Origin: an uncultured SAR86 cluster bacterium | GTDB lineage: Bacteria; Pseudomonadota; Gammaproteobacteria; Magnimaribacterales; AG-339-G14 | Length of the DNA stretch: 64,000 nucleotides | Direction of reading: 5' to 3' | Assembly (NCBI GenBank): GCA_902625415.1 | Contig: CACOBG010000007.1 | Location: 6,757 to 70,756 of the forward strand | Shown here: positions 5,000-49,356 of the stretch, piece after piece | Layout: each line of letters begins with the position of its first letter | How positions within the stretch are numbered: the first letter of the stretch is position 1 | The notes under the pieces: generated by a model | What the model was told of the DNA's origin: nothing | The model's input: the letters and a program-made list of their open reading frames with translations, nothing else | The model's database searches: none | Translations under genes and position numbers: made by a program

Positions 5000-5932
5000 C
5001 TATTTAAAGCTTTCATCGGAGTTAAAAAAATCTTTTGATCCATTGTAGAAACTTCTGTATTCCATTCGTTTTTTATTCTGTCTAGCTAGCTCTTTAATTT
5101 CTACACACTGATCTATTCCAGAAACTAAAAATTCTTTTTTATCAGCCTTTATAACTTTTCCGGGATCCGAAGCGGGCAGGGCATATACTTTTGCACGGTG
5201 AAAAATAATTCTTTCATTTTTATATTCTGAAAAGGCACAAGGATTAGGACAAAGACCGTTAATTTTGCCAACTATTTCTTTCGCTGATTTTGTCCAATCT
5301 ATTCTAGCTTCGTCTTTAGTTACTTTAGGAGCATAAGAAGATTCATTTTCATTTTGTTCTGTAAGTGAAAAATTATTTTCCTCAATAGAATCAATAACAT
5401 GTAGTATATTTCTAGATGAAATATCGCTCATAATTTCCTCTAAATCTTCAGTATTCGTTCCTTCCTCAATAGGAAATTTTATGCTGTTTACAATTGGACC
5501 CGTATCGAGACCGGCATCCATTTTCATAAATGTAATCCCTGTTTCTCGGTCGCAGTTAATTATGCTTCTTTGAATTGGAGCTGCACCTCTGTACTTAGGT
5601 AATAAAGATGTGTGAATGTTAAAGCTTCCATGTTTTGCCACGTTCAAAAGATCTTCACTAATGATGTGTCCAAAAGCAAAGACAAGAAGAAGATCAATAT
5701 TAAGTTTTTCCAAGGTAGGTCTGAACTTTCTATCTTTGATTTCATCGTAAGAAAAAATTTTAATTTTTTTCTCTTCTGCAAAAACTCTGATTGGACTTTT
5801 AACAAATTTTAAACCTCTGCCCGAACGCTTTTCTTCTGCACAAATCACTCCAACCAAATCGTGTTTGGACTCATAGATGGTTTCAAGAGTTTCAAGGGCA
5901 ATCTTAGGCGTAGCAGCAAATAAGATATTCAT
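5000..5932 (-). CDS. fmt: Methionyl-tRNA formyltransferase
   Basis: NIHTSLLPKYRGAAPIQ, MDAGLDTGP; coupled to def. Confidence 0.96.
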   Translation of the reverse strand: MNILFAATPKIALETLETIYESKHDLVGVICAEEKRSGRGLKFVKSPIRVFAEEKKIKIFSYDEIKDRKFRPTLEKLNIDLLLVFAFGHIISEDLLNVAKHGSFNIHTSLLPKYRGAAPIQRSIINCDRETGITFMKMDAGLDTGPIVNSIKFPIEEGTNTEDLEEIMSDISSRNILHVIDSIEENNFSLTEQNENESSYAPKVTKDEARIDWTKSAKEIVGKINGLCPNPCAFSEYKNERIIFHRAKVYALPASDPGKVIKADKKEFLVSGIDQCVEIKELARQNKKRMEYRSFYNGSKDFFNSDESFK

Positions 5933-6429
5933 TATTTCTGTTTGACAATTTTATTTCGGATTCTTCTTCTTTTCAGTTCAGAAATATGATCGACGAATAA
6001 TCGGCCGTTGAGGTGATCAAGTTCATGCTGGACAACTTTCGTTAATAGTCCTTCGGGTTTAATTTCTTGTTTTTTTCCGTTTAGATCTTGATAAGAGAGT
6101 TTAATATCTGATGGTCTTGAAATTTTCTCAAAAAAACCCGGGACACTTAAGCAGCCTTCATCGTAATCTTCAGTTTTAGAAGGATCCAAAATTTGGATTG
6201 CAGGATTGACGATTACTAAAGGTTCATTTTTTTCTGGACTGATGTCGATAACAGCTACTTGTTTAGCAACGCCAATTTGAGTAGCTGCCAATCCAATTCC
6301 ATTCACGGAGTGCATGGTTTCGAACATATCATCCGTTAAAGTTTTCAACTCTTCGTCAAAAGTTTCAACAGGTTTTGCTTTAATACGTAAATCTTGATCA
6401 GGAAATTTTAAAATTTTTCTTATTGCCAC
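5932..6429 (-). CDS. def: Peptide deformylase
   Basis: GIGLAATQ, EGCLS, QHELDH. Confidence 0.97.
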   Translation of the reverse strand: MAIRKILKFPDQDLRIKAKPVETFDEELKTLTDDMFETMHSVNGIGLAATQIGVAKQVAVIDISPEKNEPLVIVNPAIQILDPSKTEDYDEGCLSVPGFFEKISRPSDIKLSYQDLNGKKQEIKPEGLLTKVVQHELDHLNGRLFVDHISELKRRRIRNKIVKQK

Positions 6430-11679: not shown

Positions 11680-12582
11680 ATGAGTTCTGAATCTTCTTAT
11701 TACGTTCCAGATAGTAGTAAGTTGCCCATTTTTATGGCTTTTGGGCTTTTGCTTTTTGTCTTGGGAGCTGGTGGAACCATAAATGATTTAGGTAAGGAAA
11801 GCTCAAATTCGTATTTGTTGCTCATGGCCTCTTTCGCTGTAATTTGGGGCGTAATGTTTGTTTGGTTCAGTAATGTAATTAGCGAAAACAATCAAAAACT
11901 CTATAGCGATCAGTTAAACAGATCTTTCGTTCATGGCATGGCATGGTTCATATTTTCCGAAGTCATGTTTTTCTTTGCATTCTTCTTAGCTCTAGGATAC
12001 GTGAGGCTCTTTGCAGTCCCTTGGCTTGGAGGCGATGGCGAGAAAGGAATTACAAATATCCTTTGGCCTGCTTTTGAATCGGCTTGGCCGGTTATGGAAA
12101 CTCCAGATAATGAAAACTTTCCTGGAGCATATAAAAATATGAACATACCAGGGATTTCTAAACTTCACACTTGGCTACCTTTCTGGAATACGCTCTGTCT
12201 GGTTACTTCAAGCGGAACGATAGCATTAGCCGAATCAGCACTGAAAAAAGGCAACAGGACATCTTTTAAAAGTTGGATGGTCGTAACAATTTCTTTAGGC
12301 TTTATCTTTGTATTTTTGCAAGGTCTAGAATATTACGAAGCATACGCTCATATGGGTTTAACGCTTGGCGCTGGAATTTATGGTACAACATTCTTTTTAT
12401 TGACGGGATTTCATGGTTTTCACGTATGTCTTGGGGCAATCATACTAACCATCATGACAATTAGAGGATTTAATGGAGCTTTTTCTAAACATGATCATTT
12501 TGGGCTTGCTGCTGGATCATGGTATTGGCACTTCGTAGATGTAGTTTGGATACTACTCGTTTTGGTCGTTTATGTATTTTAA
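11680..12582 (+). CDS. coxC: Cytochrome c oxidase subunit III
   Basis: FIFSEVMFF, TGFHGFHV, WYWHFVDVVW. Confidence 0.96.
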   Translation: MSSESSYYVPDSSKLPIFMAFGLLLFVLGAGGTINDLGKESSNSYLLLMASFAVIWGVMFVWFSNVISENNQKLYSDQLNRSFVHGMAWFIFSEVMFFFAFFLALGYVRLFAVPWLGGDGEKGITNILWPAFESAWPVMETPDNENFPGAYKNMNIPGISKLHTWLPFWNTLCLVTSSGTIALAESALKKGNRTSFKSWMVVTISLGFIFVFLQGLEYYEAYAHMGLTLGAGIYGTTFFLLTGFHGFHVCLGAIILTIMTIRGFNGAFSKHDHFGLAAGSWYWHFVDVVWILLVLVVYVF

Positions 12583-12785
12583 CCCCAAGGGGAATTTAGA
12601 CCCAATTGTCCAGTGAACAATCCATATCCGATAGTAAGTAAGAGAAGCATCGCTATTGTTACTCTCACTCTCAAACTGTAAATAGCCCTGACCGTATTAC
12701 CTTTATCTTTTAACAAGAAAAATGCACTCGAAAAAAGACTCACCAACATTGCTAGGGCAAGCACAGCGATTATAAATTTAAGCAT
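12579..12785 (-). CDS. Twin-transmembrane small protein (DUF2909-like) of cox clusters
   Basis: Two hydrophobic helices, SLRVRV motif; antisense position between coxC and SURF1 as in other gammaproteobacterial cox clusters. Confidence 0.8.
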   Translation of the reverse strand: MLKFIIAVLALAMLVSLFSSAFFLLKDKGNTVRAIYSLRVRVTIAMLLLLTIGYGLFTGQLGLNSPWG

Positions 12786-15043: not shown

Positions 15044-15932
15044 AGTCATAACTCAATCCCAAAGGTTTCCTTTTTCTGGTTATCTTAAGCTCACCAAACC
15101 GTCAATTATCTATTTACTTGTCCTTACTTCAGCTACAGCAATGTTTTTGGCTGATGGGTTTTCAGGAAATTTGATGAAAGTAGCATTTGGATTATTAGGC
15201 ATAGGATTGATTGCCTCATCCAGCGCTGTAATTAATCAAATTCTTGATGTTGAAGTAGACAGCAAAATGGCAAGAACTAAAAACCGACCTATAGTTATAG
15301 GAGAAATTTCTGTAACAAATGCAAAGATTTTTGCAACAGCTCTATTAATTGTTGGAGCTATTATGTTGCTATTCTTTATAAACGTACTAACTCTTTTACT
15401 AACTCTTTTTACTTGGGCCTTCTATTCTTTTCTTTACACCAAAATACTCAAGTTTGCAGGCACTCAAAATATTGTTATTGGGGGGATAGCGGGAGCAATG
15501 CCGCCACTACTTGGTTGGACTGCAATTACTAACTCCATAGATGCCTTACCTTTGTTGATGGTCTTAATCATATTCATTTGGACGCCCCCTCATTTTTGGG
15601 CCTTATCAATAAATAGGAAAGAAGATTACGTAGCTGCAAAAATTCCCATGATGCCCGTTGTTAAAGGTACCGAGTACACAAAAATTCAAATTACTCTTTA
15701 TTCTGTTTTATTAGCTGTATCGTCTCTTTTTCCTTTTGCGACTGGCTACTTAGGCGGTTTTTATTTTTTCAGCGCAATTACTTTAAATGCTATATTCATC
15801 GGATTATCTATAGCCTTAATTTTTGATAAAAAAAACAAATTAGCTTTACCATTATTTCTTTACTCCATTGTCTTCTTAACAATATTGTTTATTTGCATGG
15901 CCCTTGATAAGTTGATTCCAATTCAATTATGA
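15033..15932 (+). CDS. cyoE: Protoheme IX farnesyltransferase (heme O synthase)
   Basis: LTKP, DSKMARTKNRP, WTPPHFWAL. Confidence 0.95.
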   Translation: MNTEVITQSQRFPFSGYLKLTKPSIIYLLVLTSATAMFLADGFSGNLMKVAFGLLGIGLIASSSAVINQILDVEVDSKMARTKNRPIVIGEISVTNAKIFATALLIVGAIMLLFFINVLTLLLTLFTWAFYSFLYTKILKFAGTQNIVIGGIAGAMPPLLGWTAITNSIDALPLLMVLIIFIWTPPHFWALSINRKEDYVAAKIPMMPVVKGTEYTKIQITLYSVLLAVSSLFPFATGYLGGFYFFSAITLNAIFIGLSIALIFDKKNKLALPLFLYSIVFLTILFICMALDKLIPIQL

Positions 15933-16567
15933 GTAACAACAAATCTATAAGAATTACTGTTGCGTCATGCTTGCTCTTTGTCTCCATGGTTGCAGGGCTT
16001 TTTGTATATACAACAGTATCTCCTAAAGAATTGACTGCAGCAGAATACAAACAAATAGGTTTTTATAAACTGGTTCGAACTAGGCAAATAAATAATTTTG
16101 AGCTTATCGAAGGGAGCAATAAGTTTTCTAATAATGATCTCAAGGGAGCATGGGATATATTATTTCTTGGTTTTGCATCTTGTCCTGATATGTGCCCGAT
16201 GACTATGAAGAAAATGGCAATGGCGAACAGTAGTCTTCCAGAAGAAATATCTTCAAAAGTAAATTTTAGAATGATCTCTGTTGATCCAGATCGCGATACT
16301 CCAAAAAAGATGCAGGAATATGCATCGGCATTTAATCCAAATTTCTCTGGAATTACCGGAGATATTGAAGTTATTTATAAGTTGGCCACAGATTTGACCT
16401 TACCTTTTGTTCCGGTGGTAGGCTCAGATAATTCCAATTACGATATGGATCATAGTATGAATCTTGCTGTTATCGACCCTAATGGTAATTATTTCGGATT
16501 TTTTAAGTCTCCTCATATGCCAGAAAAAATGGCAGAGGTTTTAGAAAGTATAGTTTCTTTCAATTAA
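15929..16567 (+). CDS. senC: SCO1/SenC copper chaperone
   Basis: CPDMCP, SVDPDRDT, DHS. Confidence 0.92.
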   Translation: MSNNKSIRITVASCLLFVSMVAGLFVYTTVSPKELTAAEYKQIGFYKLVRTRQINNFELIEGSNKFSNNDLKGAWDILFLGFASCPDMCPMTMKKMAMANSSLPEEISSKVNFRMISVDPDRDTPKKMQEYASAFNPNFSGITGDIEVIYKLATDLTLPFVPVVGSDNSNYDMDHSMNLAVIDPNGNYFGFFKSPHMPEKMAEVLESIVSFN

Positions 16568-16577
16568 AAATTTTTTA

Positions 16578-16630
16578 TTTAAAAAAATTTAAAAATTATA
16601 TATAGTTTCTTAATGAGAATAATTCTCATA
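16578..16630 (+). promoter_or_regulatory. Putative sigma70 promoter overlapped by a Fur-box-like palindrome
   Basis: TTTAAA(16578-83)-17 bp-TATAGT(16601-06); perfect 8-1-8 palindrome ATGAGAAT-A-ATTCTCAT at 16613-16629. Confidence 0.65.
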
Positions 16631-16653
16631 AAAATTTAATTGGGAGAAAAAAT

Positions 16654-17061
16654 ATGACCGCAGAACAAATAATGTTCAATTTCCAAAGCGGAAGAATGGT
16701 AGACGCTTTGGCTTTTATAGGAACTATTATAGCCATTTGGTTGGCTTTAAGAGTTGCAAACATGACAGGAGAAAATCCTGCCTCAAATCTTGTTACCAAA
16801 CTTGTATCAACTGGTTTTTGTGCCTGTATTATCGCTGGAAGCTGGCAAGCTTATACTTTCGCAGCTAATACTTTCATTATCACAGCTAGAAGAATTCAAG
16901 ATAATATAGAAAATGCTCCAAATCCTGAAGCTGCTCAAAACTTCATTGACTATGTTGGGACGACTCAAACATCAGCGACCCCAACTCCTTTGGGAATAGC
17001 ATTTTTAGCAATTGTAACCATCATGCTTCTTACTTTAATTTGGTTACCAAGAAATAACTAA
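16654..17061 (+). CDS. Unknown 3-TM membrane protein, paralog 1 of 3
   Basis: SD GGGAGA; three hydrophobic segments; shares W..R.A, N...K, A.NF...G, IW.P with the next two ORFs. Confidence 0.85.
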   Translation: MTAEQIMFNFQSGRMVDALAFIGTIIAIWLALRVANMTGENPASNLVTKLVSTGFCACIIAGSWQAYTFAANTFIITARRIQDNIENAPNPEAAQNFIDYVGTTQTSATPTPLGIAFLAIVTIMLLTLIWLPRNN

Positions 17062-17079
17062 TAATAGGAGAAGAAAGAT

Positions 17080-17493
17080 ATGGATCAGTTTCAAATAGGA
17101 ATGCTCTATAATGGGCTATTTACGTCAAATGCAATTTTTACAGGCGTCTTCATATTTCTTTTATGGATGATGTTTAGAGGTGCAAACCAATCTCACGAAA
17201 GAGGGGCAAACCTAATACAAAAAATTCTAGGTTCAGTAGTCTCGCTTTGTGTCATTGCTTTTAATTTAAATATGTTTAGCCAAGTTTTTGCGAATGTAAA
17301 CAACTATGCATACAGCTTATCTCAGCTTGATGAAATTAGCGAAGCTGGACAGGCATTTGTAAACGCAACCGGCGCTACAGAGGTTATTACTCCATCAATT
17401 ATACCTGGTGATCCAATAAGTATAGTTTTCTGGGCCATAATCACTCTGACTTTGTTAGCAACGATTTGGACGGCCCCGGAGCCAAAATCCTAA
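17080..17493 (+). CDS. Unknown 3-TM membrane protein, paralog 2 of 3
   Basis: SD AGGAGA; WMMFRGA, NLIQKILGS, AYSLSQL, IWTAP. Confidence 0.85.
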   Translation: MDQFQIGMLYNGLFTSNAIFTGVFIFLLWMMFRGANQSHERGANLIQKILGSVVSLCVIAFNLNMFSQVFANVNNYAYSLSQLDEISEAGQAFVNATGATEVITPSIIPGDPISIVFWAIITLTLLATIWTAPEPKS

Positions 17494-17502
17494 AAAAAAT
17501 TT

Positions 17503-17532
17503 AAAAAGGGAGGATTAACCTCCCTTTTTTTT
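17503..17532 (+). terminator. Intrinsic (bidirectional-type) terminator
   Basis: AAAAAGGGAGG-ATTAA-CCTCCCTTTTTTTT. Confidence 0.85.
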
Positions 17533-17562
17533 ATTTCATTTTAAAAGTTTAAGGAGGAAAAA

Positions 17563-17982
17563 ATGGAAGAAACACAAGTATGGAGCCTTTTTGCAATGCA
17601 GAACGTAGGCATCTCAATATATTTTGTTGGCATGATGTTTTTAGTATGGGTGGCATTTAGAGTTTCAAAAGGAATAAGTGAAGGTACAAACAACATTCTT
17701 ACGAAAGTCGTCGGTTCGGTTTTTGGTTTAGGAGTAGTATTTTTTGGTCTTCAAATTAATGCAATCGGAGACTATGTTGGCGGATCTGCTGCATACTCAC
17801 TCTCGCAACTTAAATCATCAGGCATAGAAGTATCGCCAATGGCAGAAAACTTTATTGCGATGAATGGAGCAGGATCTGCCCCTGAATTTTCTATATATCC
17901 TGGTGTAGTTGGAGTGATTTGGTGGTTGAGTGTTTTAATTATTATTCTTTTTCCAATCTGGGGACCGAAGTCTTCAAATTAA
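17563..17982 (+). CDS. Unknown 3-TM membrane protein, paralog 3 of 3
   Basis: SD AAGGAGG; WVAFRVS, NILTKVVGS, AYSLSQL, IWGP. Confidence 0.85.
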   Translation: MEETQVWSLFAMQNVGISIYFVGMMFLVWVAFRVSKGISEGTNNILTKVVGSVFGLGVVFFGLQINAIGDYVGGSAAYSLSQLKSSGIEVSPMAENFIAMNGAGSAPEFSIYPGVVGVIWWLSVLIIILFPIWGPKSSN

Positions 17983-18001
17983 ATTTGAATAAATAATTTA
18001 G

Positions 18002-18028
18002 AAAAAGGGAGGGAAACCTCCCTTTTTT
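18002..18028. terminator. Bidirectional intrinsic terminator between paralog 3 and the qor-like gene
   Basis: AAAAAGGGAGG-GAAA-CCTCCCTTTTTT between convergent genes. Confidence 0.88.
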
Positions 18029-18998
18029 ATATTTCTATTACAACTTTTCCGGTAGCAGTTCTATCTTCTAAAGATTTTATTGCCTCGACCGCCTGATCTA
18101 AAGAATAGCTTTTTGTAATTTCTGGTTTCAGCTTGCCATCACTATGCAAGGCAAACAATTCTTCAAAATTTTTAGCATTCTCTTCGGGCTCCCTTCCAGT
18201 AAAGCTTCCCCAGAAGACTCCAACTATTGAGCAACCTTTTAGAAGGGCCAAGTTAGTTGGAACGCTAGGAATTCCCGCAGGAAAGCCAATAACCAGTACT
18301 CTGCCTTTCCAGTTTACACATCTCATGCATTGCAAAAAGATATCTCCACCTACAGCATCGTAAATAACGTCTGCTCCTAAGCCATCAGTTAATTCTTTCA
18401 CCTTCTCTTTTAGTTCGCCATCGCCATAGTTAACCAACTCATCAGCACCCAACCTTTTAGCAATATCTAATTTTTCTTGGTTACTAGCAGCGGCTATAAC
18501 TCTGGCACCCATTGCTTTACCAATTTCTATGGCAGTTGTACCGACTCCGCCTCCTGCTCCAGTTACTAATAGTGTTTCGCCTTTCTTTAATTCTCCTCTT
18601 TGCTTTAAAGCATAGTAAGTAGTTCCGTAATTTAGTGGGAAAGCTGCGCCATCTTTGAAATCCATTGATTCAGGTAATGGCATTAAAGTAGCAGCATAAG
18701 CAGATGTTTTTTCTGCTATCCCGCCATTACCGACCATTGCAATTACTCGATCTCCTTCTTCCCAATCAGCAACACCTTCACCTACTTCGGAAATAACTCC
18801 AGCAATCTCTCCTCCCGGAGAAAATGGAAAGGGCGGCTGAAACTGATATTTTCCTTGCACAATTAAGACATCTGGAAAACTCACTCCAGCAGCTTTGACA
18901 TCAATCACAACCATACCTGGCTCTGCTCTTGGATCTTCTATTTCTTCTACTTTATGTGAATCTACTGGACCAAATTCTCTACAGACGTATGCTTTCAT
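18027..18998 (-). CDS. NADPH:quinone oxidoreductase (zeta-crystallin/MDR family)
   Basis: PGGEIAG, GAGGGVG, YDAVGG, GKVVI; no Zn ligands. Confidence 0.88.
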   Translation of the reverse strand: MKAYVCREFGPVDSHKVEEIEDPRAEPGMVVIDVKAAGVSFPDVLIVQGKYQFQPPFPFSPGGEIAGVISEVGEGVADWEEGDRVIAMVGNGGIAEKTSAYAATLMPLPESMDFKDGAAFPLNYGTTYYALKQRGELKKGETLLVTGAGGGVGTTAIEIGKAMGARVIAAASNQEKLDIAKRLGADELVNYGDGELKEKVKELTDGLGADVIYDAVGGDIFLQCMRCVNWKGRVLVIGFPAGIPSVPTNLALLKGCSIVGVFWGSFTGREPEENAKNFEELFALHSDGKLKPEITKSYSLDQAVEAIKSLEDRTATGKVVIEI

Positions 18999-41088: not shown

Positions 41089-41604
41089 TTAAGAACTTTC
41101 AGGATATTTTGAAAGAATTTGAGAAATTATTTCGTTAGCCATATCTTGATCATCAAGAGAATTGGTATTTATTCTCATATTTGCATACCAAACAACTTTA
41201 TCTAATTCTTCATCAAAAAATTTTACTGATAAGTAGTTTAAAGGAGGAAAGTCATTGGTATAAAACTTGTGAGAAAAAGGATCATTTCTGTAACCATAAA
41301 AAAAATGCGAAGAATTTACTTGTCTATATCTCTCTTTCTCTTTTACTGAAAAGCTTATTTTTAAGGACGACTTGTTATTTTGGTTTAATCCAAGTTGAGT
41401 AAGAGATGAAGATAAGGCTTTAGCAATTCTATTTATCCTTATCGGGTTTTCTTCCTCATCGGATTCAACTCTGAAAGGGTCAGGTTTGAAAATTTTAAAA
41501 TCTTTATATTTGGCAGCAGAGAAAGCTTCATCTGAATCGACTTTGACAACAAAGCCAGAAGCACAAGATGTGAGCAAAACTAAAATTATTAACCTAGCTA
41601 TCAC
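41089..41604 (-). CDS. DUF4136-like lipoprotein
   Basis: Lipobox LTSC; VVWYA and C-terminal ..ILSKYP pattern. Confidence 0.6.
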   Translation of the reverse strand: MIARLIILVLLTSCASGFVVKVDSDEAFSAAKYKDFKIFKPDPFRVESDEEENPIRINRIAKALSSSLTQLGLNQNNKSSLKISFSVKEKERYRQVNSSHFFYGYRNDPFSHKFYTNDFPPLNYLSVKFFDEELDKVVWYANMRINTNSLDDQDMANEIISQILSKYPESS

Positions 41605-48557: not shown

Positions 48558-49356
48558 TAAAGAGGTATTTTGGATTAATGATTACTTGATATTTATCTCT
48601 CAATTCGAACAGGTAGGAATCTAAAGTTTTTTGTTTTTCCTCCAAATAAAAATCAACTTCTACCTTTTCTTTTACTTGATTCAAACTGGGAGTAACGCTT
48701 TCAACTTTATTGAGTAGCTTAACAACATGGAAGCCATACGCTGATTCAACTGGACCAAGCCAAGTATCAAAAATGGGTTCTTCAAAAACTGTACTAAATT
48801 GATTACCAAAATCTCTTTGTATCTCAAATCTGGATTTTTCAACAAAATTTTTCCCTAGCATGAAAGGATCGCTTTTAGGCAAAGTATCCTCATTCTGTTG
48901 AATAGTCTTTAAAGCCTCTTCTGATCTTTGTTTGCCATTTCTTTCCGAAGAAAAGTAAAGATGAGTAAAAGTAAATCTTTCAGGAAAAATATATGACTCT
49001 AAATTTTTCTCAAAAAATTTCTGAAGTTCATCTAGTTTTGGAGGAGCAATAGAAGTTTCTTCTCTTAAAAAAGATATTTTTTGAGCAAGTCTTCTTTTAA
49101 TTATCCGATCTTCTAGGTCAAGATTTAATCTCAAAGCTTCTCGGTATAAAATCTCTTCTTTGATTACGTCATCAATGATGTTTTTGATGTCAGTTCTGGT
49201 TGGCGATCTACCAACCTGGATTTCCCAAGCGTATATCAAGCTTTCAATTTCTTGATCGGAAATAAAAATATTAAGCTCATCCTCATCATAATTGAAAACT
49301 AAGTCAAATATTAAGATGACAACACCTATCCCAAAAAAAGCAAATATTTTCTTCAT
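48550..49356 (-). CDS. PpiC-type peptidyl-prolyl isomerase-like protein, membrane anchored
   Basis: EEILYREA..L.LD, DRIIKRRL, FG..F, GPVESAYGFHVV. Confidence 0.85.
   Translation of the reverse strand: MKKIFAFFGIGVVILIFDLVFNYDEDELNIFISDQEIESLIYAWEIQVGRSPTRTDIKNIIDDVIKEEILYREALRLNLDLEDRIIKRRLAQKISFLREETSIAPPKLDELQKFFEKNLESYIFPERFTFTHLYFSSERNGKQRSEEALKTIQQNEDTLPKSDPFMLGKNFVEKSRFEIQRDFGNQFSTVFEEPIFDTWLGPVESAYGFHVVKLLNKVESVTPSLNQVKEKVEVDFYLEEKQKTLDSYLFELRDKYQVIINPKYLFND

Follow-up and report, generated by a model that had tools for sequence, protein, structure and literature searches.

An undescribed family of small membrane proteins apparently exchanged as gene cassettes behind a predicted Fur-family operator in SAR86 bacteria

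Introduction

Why should a marine bacterium carry, directly behind its cytochrome c oxidase biogenesis genes, a row of small genes that resemble each other and no described family, and what might their products do? The question arises from 64,000 nucleotides (nt) of an uncultured SAR86 cluster bacterium (contig CACOBG010000007.1, the whole stretch being called the window and positions being counted from its first letter), in which three tandem genes at 16654-17982 encode proteins of 135, 137 and 139 amino acids, here paralogs 1, 2 and 3. An earlier note on this DNA, made from the letters alone, took them for an old and retained triplication and for subunits of a hetero-oligomeric membrane complex, switched on by a Fur-type regulator next to the oxidase. 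We find that the genes belong to a family of inner-membrane proteins that in SAR86 appear to be exchanged as gene cassettes behind a constant upstream region with a predicted Fur-family operator. The gene family, the class of topology and the cassette turnover are, taken jointly, very highly probable in our judgment, and the role of the proteins, for which we favor a type-specific factor facing the periplasm, is much more tentative.

The protein family

The note was right that these are three real, homologous genes. They are open reading frames (ORFs) of the forward strand at 16654-17061 (paralog 1), 17080-17493 (paralog 2, 18 nt 3' of paralog 1) and 17563-17982 (paralog 3), preceded by the Shine-Dalgarno sequences GGGAGA (16642-16647), AGGAG (17066-17070) and AAGGAGG (17551-17557), respectively. 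Pairwise BLASTP gives E-values of 3.6e-11 (1 vs 2), 3.3e-8 (1 vs 3) and 6e-14 (2 vs 3) at local identities of 25-32% (26-31% to paralog 1 in a MAFFT alignment), and profile-profile comparison of the paralogs' orthogroups gives probabilities of 98.3-98.5%; we judge the homology to lie far beyond chance. The alignment contains all of the motifs previously listed, namely W-x-x-[LF]-R-x-[AS] ending helix 1, N-x-x-x-K before helix 2, AYSLSQL in paralogs 2 and 3, [AG]-x-x-F-x-x-x-x-G in all three, and IW-x(1-2)-P ending helix 3.

A word-indexed search of 5.8 billion proteins gave 74 clusters, all from marine metagenomes and without a Pfam domain or descriptive name, which sort without remainder into three orthogroups corresponding to the three window genes. 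When 1.84 billion representatives were searched exhaustively with a profile, about 300 clusters came out, nearly all of them standalone proteins of about 130-145 residues. Orthologs of paralog 1 are 51-97% identical to it, the closest genome locus is that of the SAR86 single-cell genome AG-899-P03 (93% protein identity), and members that are named in their sources are always called hypothetical.

The earlier failure to recognize a family was likewise borne out. Pfam, NCBIfam, PADLOC and PHROG gave nothing above threshold for the three window proteins, with no PADLOC match, a best PHROG match at E = 0.059, and a TrbL match to paralog 1 at 14.6 bits against a cut-off of 25.9 bits. When 72 diverse members were searched against Pfam one by one, no family recurred above a weak level, the weak matches being to T4SS_pilin (4 of 72), DUF202 (4) and Colicin_V production protein (3). 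We rejected a pilin or VirB2-like identity (PF18895, best E = 4.9e-4 in those four members), as secretion genes are present in no locus. A profile search against PDB sequences returned one chance-level match (E = 0.039), and three scans of viral contigs found no relatives of the family, so that with the empty profile searches we also rejected a known PADLOC defence system or PHROG phage protein. As far as these searches reach, then, the three genes encode inner-membrane proteins of about 135 amino acids whose family is undescribed.

Three membrane helices had been proposed for these proteins, and this architecture holds. Helices are predicted at about residues 16-34, 49-70 and 113-131 of paralog 1, and hydropathy supports three membrane helices with a short extramembrane helix, as do two confident AlphaFold2 models, that of paralog 1 from a 72-sequence alignment (predicted local distance difference test score 94.0, predicted template-modeling score 0.81) and that of paralog 2 (local score 88.6). 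Both models have long helices at about 3-40 and 46-83, a short helix at about 91-101 and a third membrane helix at 112-130. The Foldseek check that the note had suggested, run on both models against the PDB, gave no characterized fold or other neighbor (best E 0.57-0.72), and one model searched against the viral structures of BFVD gave none either (best E 0.46).

Charges across the 72 members suggest which parts face outward. Per sequence, the N-terminal tail holds 0.31 Lys plus Arg and 1.9 Asp plus Glu, loop 1 holds 1.9 Lys plus Arg in addition to the near-invariant Arg that ends helix 1, the long loop of about 42 residues between helices 2 and 3 holds 4.2 acidic and 1.4 basic residues, and the C-terminal tail has 1.5 Lys plus Arg within 4.6 residues. 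Since this pattern fits the positive-inside rule with the acidic N-tail and long segment outward and the basic loop 1 and C-tail inward, the proteins are predicted to be N-out/C-in three-helix proteins of the inner membrane, with the acidic N-terminus and a helical segment of about 40 residues in the periplasm. The basic loop, with its near-invariant Arg and Lys, and the short basic tail would be cytoplasmic.

Conservation across the 72 members (paralog 2 numbering) is best at an N-terminal Glu, at Trp29 and Arg33 where helix 1 ends on the inner side, at Lys48, Ser/Thr52 and Phe54 where helix 2 begins, at residues of the outside helix that recur with a period of 3-4 (A77, L80, L83, S87, A90, I94), and at Trp130 on the inner end of helix 3. 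As the note had observed, there is no conserved His, Cys or Met ligand: the 72 diverse members have no such column, the maximum column frequencies being 0.06 for His and 0.26 for Cys.

Exchange of coding cassettes in SAR86

The view of the triplication as old and retained does not survive comparison with relatives, in which the copy number varies and genes are replaced between close relatives. Our SAR86 comparison set comprised 24 fetched loci, individually referred to below by L numbers. SAR86 single-cell genomes and metagenome-assembled genomes (MAGs) hold one to four tandem copies, always between sco1 and a zinc-type alcohol dehydrogenase or quinone-oxidoreductase-like (QOR-like) gene. Each array has one type-1 gene (paralog 1 in the window) followed by zero to three type-2/3 genes; L020 has the type-1 gene alone, and in multi-copy arrays the type-1 gene comes first, separated by 8-24 nt (66 nt in L012) from the one to three type-2/3 genes.

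The flank proteins of L030 and L031 are 85-99% identical to those of the window, but the family genes match at no more than 40-52% and are not equal in number. In a DNA comparison, the window runs collinear with L030 (87% identity) as far as 16653, one base before the first ATG, and again from 17987, five bases past the last stop codon, with only a 177-nt patch alignable in between. L007, whose flanks have diverged from the window's as far as those of L030, is collinear with the window throughout.

Other pairs of loci repeat the pattern. L009 and L014 are 99/100/99% identical in CtaB, SCO1 and the QOR-like protein, respectively, and only 54% and 61% in their family genes. L013 and L017 (99/98/91% in the same three proteins) have first genes that are 64% identical; L008 and L022 (96/92/97%) differ in gene 1 (57%) and agree in gene 2 (94%); and L004 and L011 (97/94/86%) agree in gene 1 (90%) and differ in gene 2 (32%). 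The converse also occurs: gene 3 of L012 and gene 4 of L030 are 96% identical on backbones that are 63/58/87% identical. In a 60-nt sliding comparison of L009 with L014, identity is 82-98% through the promoter and operator up to the ATG, 35-78% inside the genes, and rises again over roughly the final 40 nt of gene 2 and in the terminator.

These comparisons show coding cassettes that are exchanged by recombination, one breakpoint falling at the first ATG and the other at the 3' end or terminator, such that near-identical backbones hold deeply diverged alleles and distant backbones can share near-identical ones. Genes 1 and 2 are evidently exchanged independently, as in L008 and L022. The proposal that the paralogs form a hetero-oligomer thus meets mixed evidence: exactly one type-1 gene always comes first with type-2/3 genes close behind, as would suit such a complex, and the independent exchange of genes 1 and 2 speaks against it. 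Single copies outside SAR86 diverge in step with their neighbors, and cassette turnover therefore appears to be a SAR86 feature that coincides with multi-copy status and with the Fur-type operator.

Nei-Gojobori estimates of the synonymous divergence (dS) and of the ratio of nonsynonymous to synonymous divergence (dN/dS) were made for cassettes and flanks. Within a cassette type dN/dS is 0.02-0.16, compared with 0.007-0.09 for the flanks, and against L007 it is 0.096, 0.056 and 0.054 for paralogs 1, 2 and 3, which shows each cassette type to be, on these estimates, under strong purifying selection. Between the window and L007 the cassette dS is 0.18-0.42 and the flank dS 0.53-1.31, and between L030 and L031 these are 0.16-0.43 and 0.8-2.0; a cassette dS so often below that of the flanks suggests that the cassettes were shared more recently than the backbones. 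In L009 and L014, which hold different types, the cassette dS of 1.3-2.8 is saturated and the flank dS only 0.2-0.3.

Distribution and gene context

A genome scan with a type-1 alignment profile, using one genome per species, gave 32 loci. Outside SAR86 the family occurs as a single copy, in Porticoccaceae, in SAR11-like genomes labeled 'Pelagibacteraceae' or 'Rickettsiales', and in Henriciella, Hellea and Rhodobiaceae MAGs. The neighbors of these single copies have no relation to one another (among them are a fatty-acid hydroxylase, CotH, a polysaccharide deacetylase, a glycosyltransferase, NnrU, an MFS_2 transporter, SnoaL and a cellulase), cox genes adjoin none of the 13 non-SAR86 loci, and no conserved partner gene was found in single-copy genomes or beside distant members. 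The SAR11-like genes have housekeeping neighbors, and we therefore rejected a glycosyltransferase-island setting for them. The synteny check that the note had suggested thus gave a divided answer, in that the place between sco1 and the QOR-like gene is constant within SAR86 and the copies elsewhere are single and have no cox linkage.

In a neighbor-joining tree, the first gene of the main SAR86 clade groups with the single-copy genes of Porticoccaceae and of L026, those of L030 and L031 cluster with Henriciella, and the SAR86 copies farther downstream make up a clade of their own, divided into several subtypes.

Two distant loci have contexts of their own. At L160 (497-5249) a distant member of 146 amino acids lies 15 nt 3' of a GYD-domain gene, with an ABC-3 (ZnuB-like) permease and a CobW/COG0523 gene less than 4 kb away, a neighborhood of the zinc-starvation type; neither an operator nor a second family copy was found at L160. 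At L142 (529-3199), a more distant low-GC relative, there are two divergent family genes and a QOR-like gene 41% identical to that of the window, laid out on one strand as TTGACG-17 nt-TATAGT-operator-family gene-glutathione S-transferase gene-QOR-like gene. This may be an operon linking the family to quinone or glutathione metabolism.

In the window, the gene order upstream of the array is coxB-coxA-ctaG-coxC-surf1-(thioredoxin-like)-ctaA-ctaB-sco1. The sco1/senC gene (15929-16567, forward strand), the last of the cytochrome c oxidase biogenesis cluster and the left flank of the array, has an ortholog with PF02630 in L001 and is kept as flank in 24 of 24 SAR86 loci; no terminator was detected between it and the array. 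The right flank is the convergent QOR-like gene (18027-18998, reverse strand), whose ortholog in L001 has PF08240 and PF00107 and which is present in all SAR86 loci. On the reverse strand between coxC and surf1 lies an ORF for 68 amino acids (12579-12785), whose equivalent in L001 has PF11137 (DUF2909), a small protein frequent in cox clusters.

SAR86 arrays consist of modules of one or two genes, and a hairpin made up of A-run, GC stem and T-run ends each module. In the window, hairpin 1 (17503-17529; GGGAGG stem, -18 kcal/mol, terminator-like in both directions) ends the module of paralogs 1 and 2, and hairpin 2 (18001-18028), of the same type, ends the array and is common to the convergent gene downstream. 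The motif AGGGAGG...CCTCCCT occurs twice in the 64 kb, each time 3' of a cassette, and both hairpin regions lie within a 58-nt direct repeat with a spacing of 498 nt, or one module length. Rfam gave only sub-threshold matches on the locus, caused by the hairpins. We rejected an integron cassette, as the hairpins are of the intrinsic-terminator type and the flanks are cox and QOR-like genes without an integrase. Paralog 3 is a separate module that starts 33 nt past the internal hairpin, a layout also seen after the internal hairpins of L007, L010, L011 and L031. As this gap leaves no room for a promoter, paralog 3 would depend on read-through of the hairpin, which may set its expression lower.

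Operator and regulation

Upstream of paralog 1 is a promoter-like site, TTTAAA-17 nt-TATAGT (16578-16606, forward strand, with the -10 hexamer at 16601-16606), called by consensus match only. The predicted Fur-family operator, AATGAGAATAATTCTCATA at 16612-16630, begins 5 nt past the -10 hexamer. From its end to the ATG there are 23 nt, and its core is the perfect 7-1-7 palindrome TGAGAAT-A-ATTCTCA (16614-16628), about 25 nt from the ATG. TATAGT stands in the same position relative to the operator in L004, L007, L010-L012, L015, L030 and L142. In 20 of the 24 SAR86 loci (14 distinct sequences including that of the window) and in L142, equivalent operator sites are found just past the -10 hexamer and some 40 nt ahead of the ATG, and when each upstream region was shuffled, none of 500 shuffles reached the observed score. 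The window's operator scores 24.3 bits and is the sole strong site in the 64 kb. The next-best sites, at 49117-49135 (13.1 bits) and 41161-41179 (11.7 bits), are inside long reverse-strand ORFs and are probably there by chance. L016 has, instead of the operator, the overlapping palindromes TGCAA-N5-TTGCA and TTGCA-N7-TGCAA about 95-100 nt upstream, which may be the site of a different regulator.

By direct reading the operator matches the classical Fur box GATAATGATAATCATTATC at 14 of 19 positions, although the classical E. coli Fur consensus scores -5.7 bits in the SAR86 matrix. A closer likeness is found in Caulobacter crescentus, in which Fur sites including ATTGAGAACCATTCTCAAA and TTTGAGAATGGTTCTCAAT have been validated by gel shift and footprinting (PMC2724300). 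These two are nearly identical to the SAR86 palindrome and score 20 bits in the SAR86 matrix, which gives 17-20 bits on three of six validated Caulobacter sites. The Caulobacter gene behind the most similar of them, CC_0155, was considered as a homolog of the family and rejected, as it encodes a DUF2061 protein.

The genes behind the palindrome in metagenomes point the same way. A scan for exact TTGAGAATNATTCTCAA gave 120 contigs, with 82 non-redundant genes starting no more than 160 nt 3' of the site; among these are eight FUR-family genes, five FTR1 iron permeases, five ZnuA-type and four FbpA-type binding proteins and two TonB-receptor Plug proteins, along with a siderophore-interacting protein (SIP), a heme oxygenase, a Haem_bd protein and an Rrf2 regulator, all of them collected across genomes rather than within one SAR86 genome. 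Low-GC marine contigs have the palindrome 5' of three FbpA-like genes, gltB and two nrdD-like reductase genes, and the palindrome search in such contigs also gave two further family loci, L142 among them.

Since the operator matches the Fur box, resembles validated Caulobacter sites and precedes genes of this kind in metagenomes, we consider Fur-family control of the array to be highly probable as a prediction from its sequence, and iron to be its likely signal. The Fur-type control that the note had inferred is thus supported. The claim that the genes are 'switched on' by the regulator has to be turned around: Fur is normally a repressor, so that one would expect the array to be repressed when iron is sufficient, and to be de-repressed and expressed in iron starvation. 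A tblastn search of the window and of a first set of the loci with an approximate E. coli Fur sequence as query found no Fur-family gene.

The palindrome was also seen in settings apart from the array. In a low-GC genome (L102, 12440-14221) the exact palindrome lies between ctaB and the multi-heme actA of an Alternative Complex III operon, which suggests Fur-type control of an iron-rich respiratory complex there. On another low-GC marine contig (L062, 8090-10567) it lies between divergent genes for a cytochrome P450 and an FbpA-like ferric-binding protein. Two Henriciella MAGs (L028 at 5720-5990 and L032 at about 5842) have a perfect TGAGAATGATTCTCA with nearby half-sites some 500 nt downstream of the family gene and about 20 nt upstream of a small reverse-strand ORF read by eye.

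What the proteins might do

The best explanation of the whole, to which we would give a probability of about 0.4, is that the family provides iron-starvation-induced, type-specific factors facing the periplasm. The proteins would form small oligomers in the inner membrane, with the outward-facing helical cap as a selected, type-specific surface. This cap would bind or block some agent that reaches the periplasm when the iron-regulated TonB-dependent gates of the outer membrane open, and the result would be an immunity-like, exclusion-like or specificity factor rather than a part of the cytochrome oxidase. Deep and conserved allele classes, independent exchange, variable copy number, an outward domain and co-regulation with iron uptake are the reasons for preferring a type-specific periplasmic role, since such a pattern is more like that of specificity or immunity loci than that of fixed subunits in a conserved enzyme.

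The locus would then be a Fur-controlled expression slot with interchangeable membrane-protein genes, giving type-specific protection against agents that exploit iron-regulated outer-membrane transporters, or type-specific handling of iron sources, with the types maintained by frequency- or niche-dependent selection across the global SAR86 population. In this full form the proposal is speculative, and the protective or specificity role itself we also regard as doubtful.

Several observations weigh against it. No toxin, phage, TonB, receptor or transporter gene adjoins the family in about 40 loci, and there are neither PADLOC or PHROG matches nor relatives on viral contigs. Single-copy orthologs elsewhere evolve normally, those of SAR11-like genomes among housekeeping genes, which points to an ordinary physiological role in the ancestor. 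The operator is absent in 4 of the 24 SAR86 loci (L013, L016, L017 and L018, which make up a subclade) and in almost all single-copy loci, a Hellea locus with AATGAGAACCGCTCTCAAA at -99 being one case of a site there. SAR86 is free-living at low cell density (PMC3358033), and bacteriocin warfare is less plausible for that reason. The QOR-like gene is also allele-swapped, being 86% identical between L011 and L012 when ctaB and sco1 are 96-97% identical, and 99% identical between the window and L031 when sco1 is only 88% identical. The whole region is thus a recombination mosaic reaching past the family genes, and part of the pattern may reflect a recombination hot spot rather than selection on the family.

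Taken to its end, this last point gives a neutral explanation: birth-and-death of genes at a hot spot, in which a generic membrane role with loose sequence needs, such as stabilizing the membrane or a complex in iron stress, lets diversity arise from easy exchange between conserved flanks. Besides the swapping of the QOR-like gene, the gene-plus-hairpin modules and the 58-nt repeat fit tandem duplication and unequal crossing-over, and few positions are conserved family-wide. We nevertheless find it unlikely, as constraint within types is tight (dN/dS of 0.02-0.16), alleles only 40-60% identical sit on backbones with a dS of merely 0.2-0.3, identical types persist across very distant backbones, and exactly one type-1 gene in first position looks like an architecture driven by function. 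An accessory of iron or nutrient uptake, for example an inner-membrane channel, docking or handover protein for substrates of TonB receptors, with the types as substrate or niche specificities, would account for the Fur-family operator, the acidic periplasmic cap with its conserved N-terminal Glu, and the ordinary physiological behavior of the single-copy orthologs that other marine bacteria have. Marine oligotrophs typically have flexible genes for nutrient acquisition. The host suits the idea as well, since SAR86 has very many TonB-dependent receptors and very few inner-membrane ABC systems (PMC3358033), and its receptors respond to iron in situ (PMC11069385). Such an accessory might be expected to have conserved metal-ligand or polar intramembrane residues, a receptor, TonB/ExbBD, binding protein or permease gene adjoining in some of the roughly 40 loci, or a Foldseek likeness to solved transporter folds; none of these was found, and we consider this role not very probable.

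The remaining two explanations seem weaker still. A part in respiration, in which the proteins would modulate the aa3-type cytochrome c oxidase or another respiratory complex, or be its accessory or alternative subunits, and be expressed when iron is limiting, was suggested by the gene order, and the adjacency itself stands: the cox biogenesis cluster adjoins the array in 24 of 24 SAR86 loci, with no terminator detected after sco1, and the same palindrome precedes the Alternative Complex III operon of another low-GC genome. Prokaryotic oxidase subunit IV is also of similar size and helix count. The functional link fares badly, however, in that no non-SAR86 genome examined has cox linkage, neither COX4_pro nor another oxidase family matches apart from COX7B in one of the 72 members (E = 0.046), and the cassettes are 40-60% identical when CoxC, CtaB and SCO1 are 85-100% identical in the same genome pairs, a contrast that one would hardly expect of a subunit obliged to fit the oxidase. 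A cytochrome oxidase subunit role is thus unlikely, and the respiratory explanation as a whole has a very slim chance. Control by a Zur- or Mur-type Fur paralog, with a response to zinc or manganese starvation rather than iron, is conceivable because ZnuA-family genes are 5 of the 82 behind the exact palindrome; the zinc-type neighborhood of the distant L160 member and the negative score of the E. coli Fur consensus also speak for it. L160 itself has no operator, though, most of the annotated genes that follow the palindrome have to do with iron (FTR1, FbpA-type, plug, SIP, heme oxygenase, gltB), the nearest sites with experimental validation are those of Fur, and the match to GATAATGATAATCATTATC holds; we regard zinc or manganese control as quite improbable.

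The family is of interest as a new protein family with an unusual population-genetic signature of cassette exchange in a very abundant ocean bacterium, as SAR86 is among the most abundant heterotrophic bacteria of the surface ocean and iron is limiting across large parts of its habitat. Should the type-specific, iron-regulated model be true, it would bring a new protein family and fold into the iron-starvation response of bacteria, provide a compact and easily typed population marker in the form of a polymorphic cassette between two conserved genes, and offer an entry point to the drivers of balancing or diversifying selection in streamlined planktonic genomes, such as phage, toxins or iron-source niches. 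If instead we are looking at a neutral hot-spot effect, the finding shrinks to an uncharacterized Fur-regulated membrane family, still new and of modest interest. A SAR86 isolate exists (PMC11582366), as do iron-addition metatranscriptomes with SAR86 reads (PMC11069385), and the model of the locus is therefore directly testable.

Comparison with known systems

In its predicted regulation the array is like Fur-repressed genes with the Caulobacter Fur-alpha-type box (PMC2724300) or the classical gammaproteobacterial box, in that TTGAGAAY-N-RTTCTCAA, an inverted repeat of 19 bp, follows the -10 hexamer directly, and like Fur regulons in that other genomes have this sequence ahead of iron-uptake and fur genes. 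Each arm of the SAR86 repeat has the half-site GAGAAT, one position away from the classical GATAAT, and the product is outside any described Fur regulon.

Two kinds of three-helix protein invite comparison by their shape. Oxidase subunit IV of the CyoD/CtaF type has about 110 residues and three membrane helices, and the family is like it in size, helix number and oxidase-gene neighbors, but has an extra periplasmic segment of about 40 residues and is hypervariable; we rejected this identity (COX4_pro/CyoD), as there is no sequence match and cox genes co-occur in SAR86 only. Class I holins likewise have three helices with an N-out/C-in arrangement, the same as the predicted topology here, and are small. 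We rejected a holin too: Phage_holin_2 matches one of 72 members (E = 0.045), no endolysin or phage genes are nearby, and the C-tail of 4-6 residues lacks the charged tail.

The nearest functional analogy, by our reckoning, is with the immunity proteins of pore-forming bacteriocins. Those for colicins and pyocins are small inner-membrane proteins with three or four membrane helices. Like them, the family is small and polytopic, without catalytic residues, polymorphic, arranged in tandem arrays of variable copy number and horizontally exchanged, with tightly conserved types. The analogy failed both defining tests, of membership in a known immunity family and of a neighboring toxin gene: neither the sequences of the three window proteins and the 72 members nor, with Foldseek against the PDB, the folds gave a match, and there is no toxin gene in about 40 loci. 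Unlike immunity genes, moreover, the single-copy orthologs evolve like core genes, and the host is dilute and planktonic.

Finally, hypervariable genomic islands are a feature of the abundant marine oligotrophs SAR11 and Prochlorococcus. A hypervariable region has been inferred for SAR86 (PMC3358033), and neither of two SAR86 genome papers (PMC3358033, PMC11582366) mentions the array locus. Like such islands, the array has conserved core flanks around content that differs between close relatives; unlike them, it is a micro-island of 0.4-1.9 kb with members of one protein family only, in which the promoter, operator, ribosome-binding site and terminator are kept and the breakpoints fall exactly at the coding boundaries.

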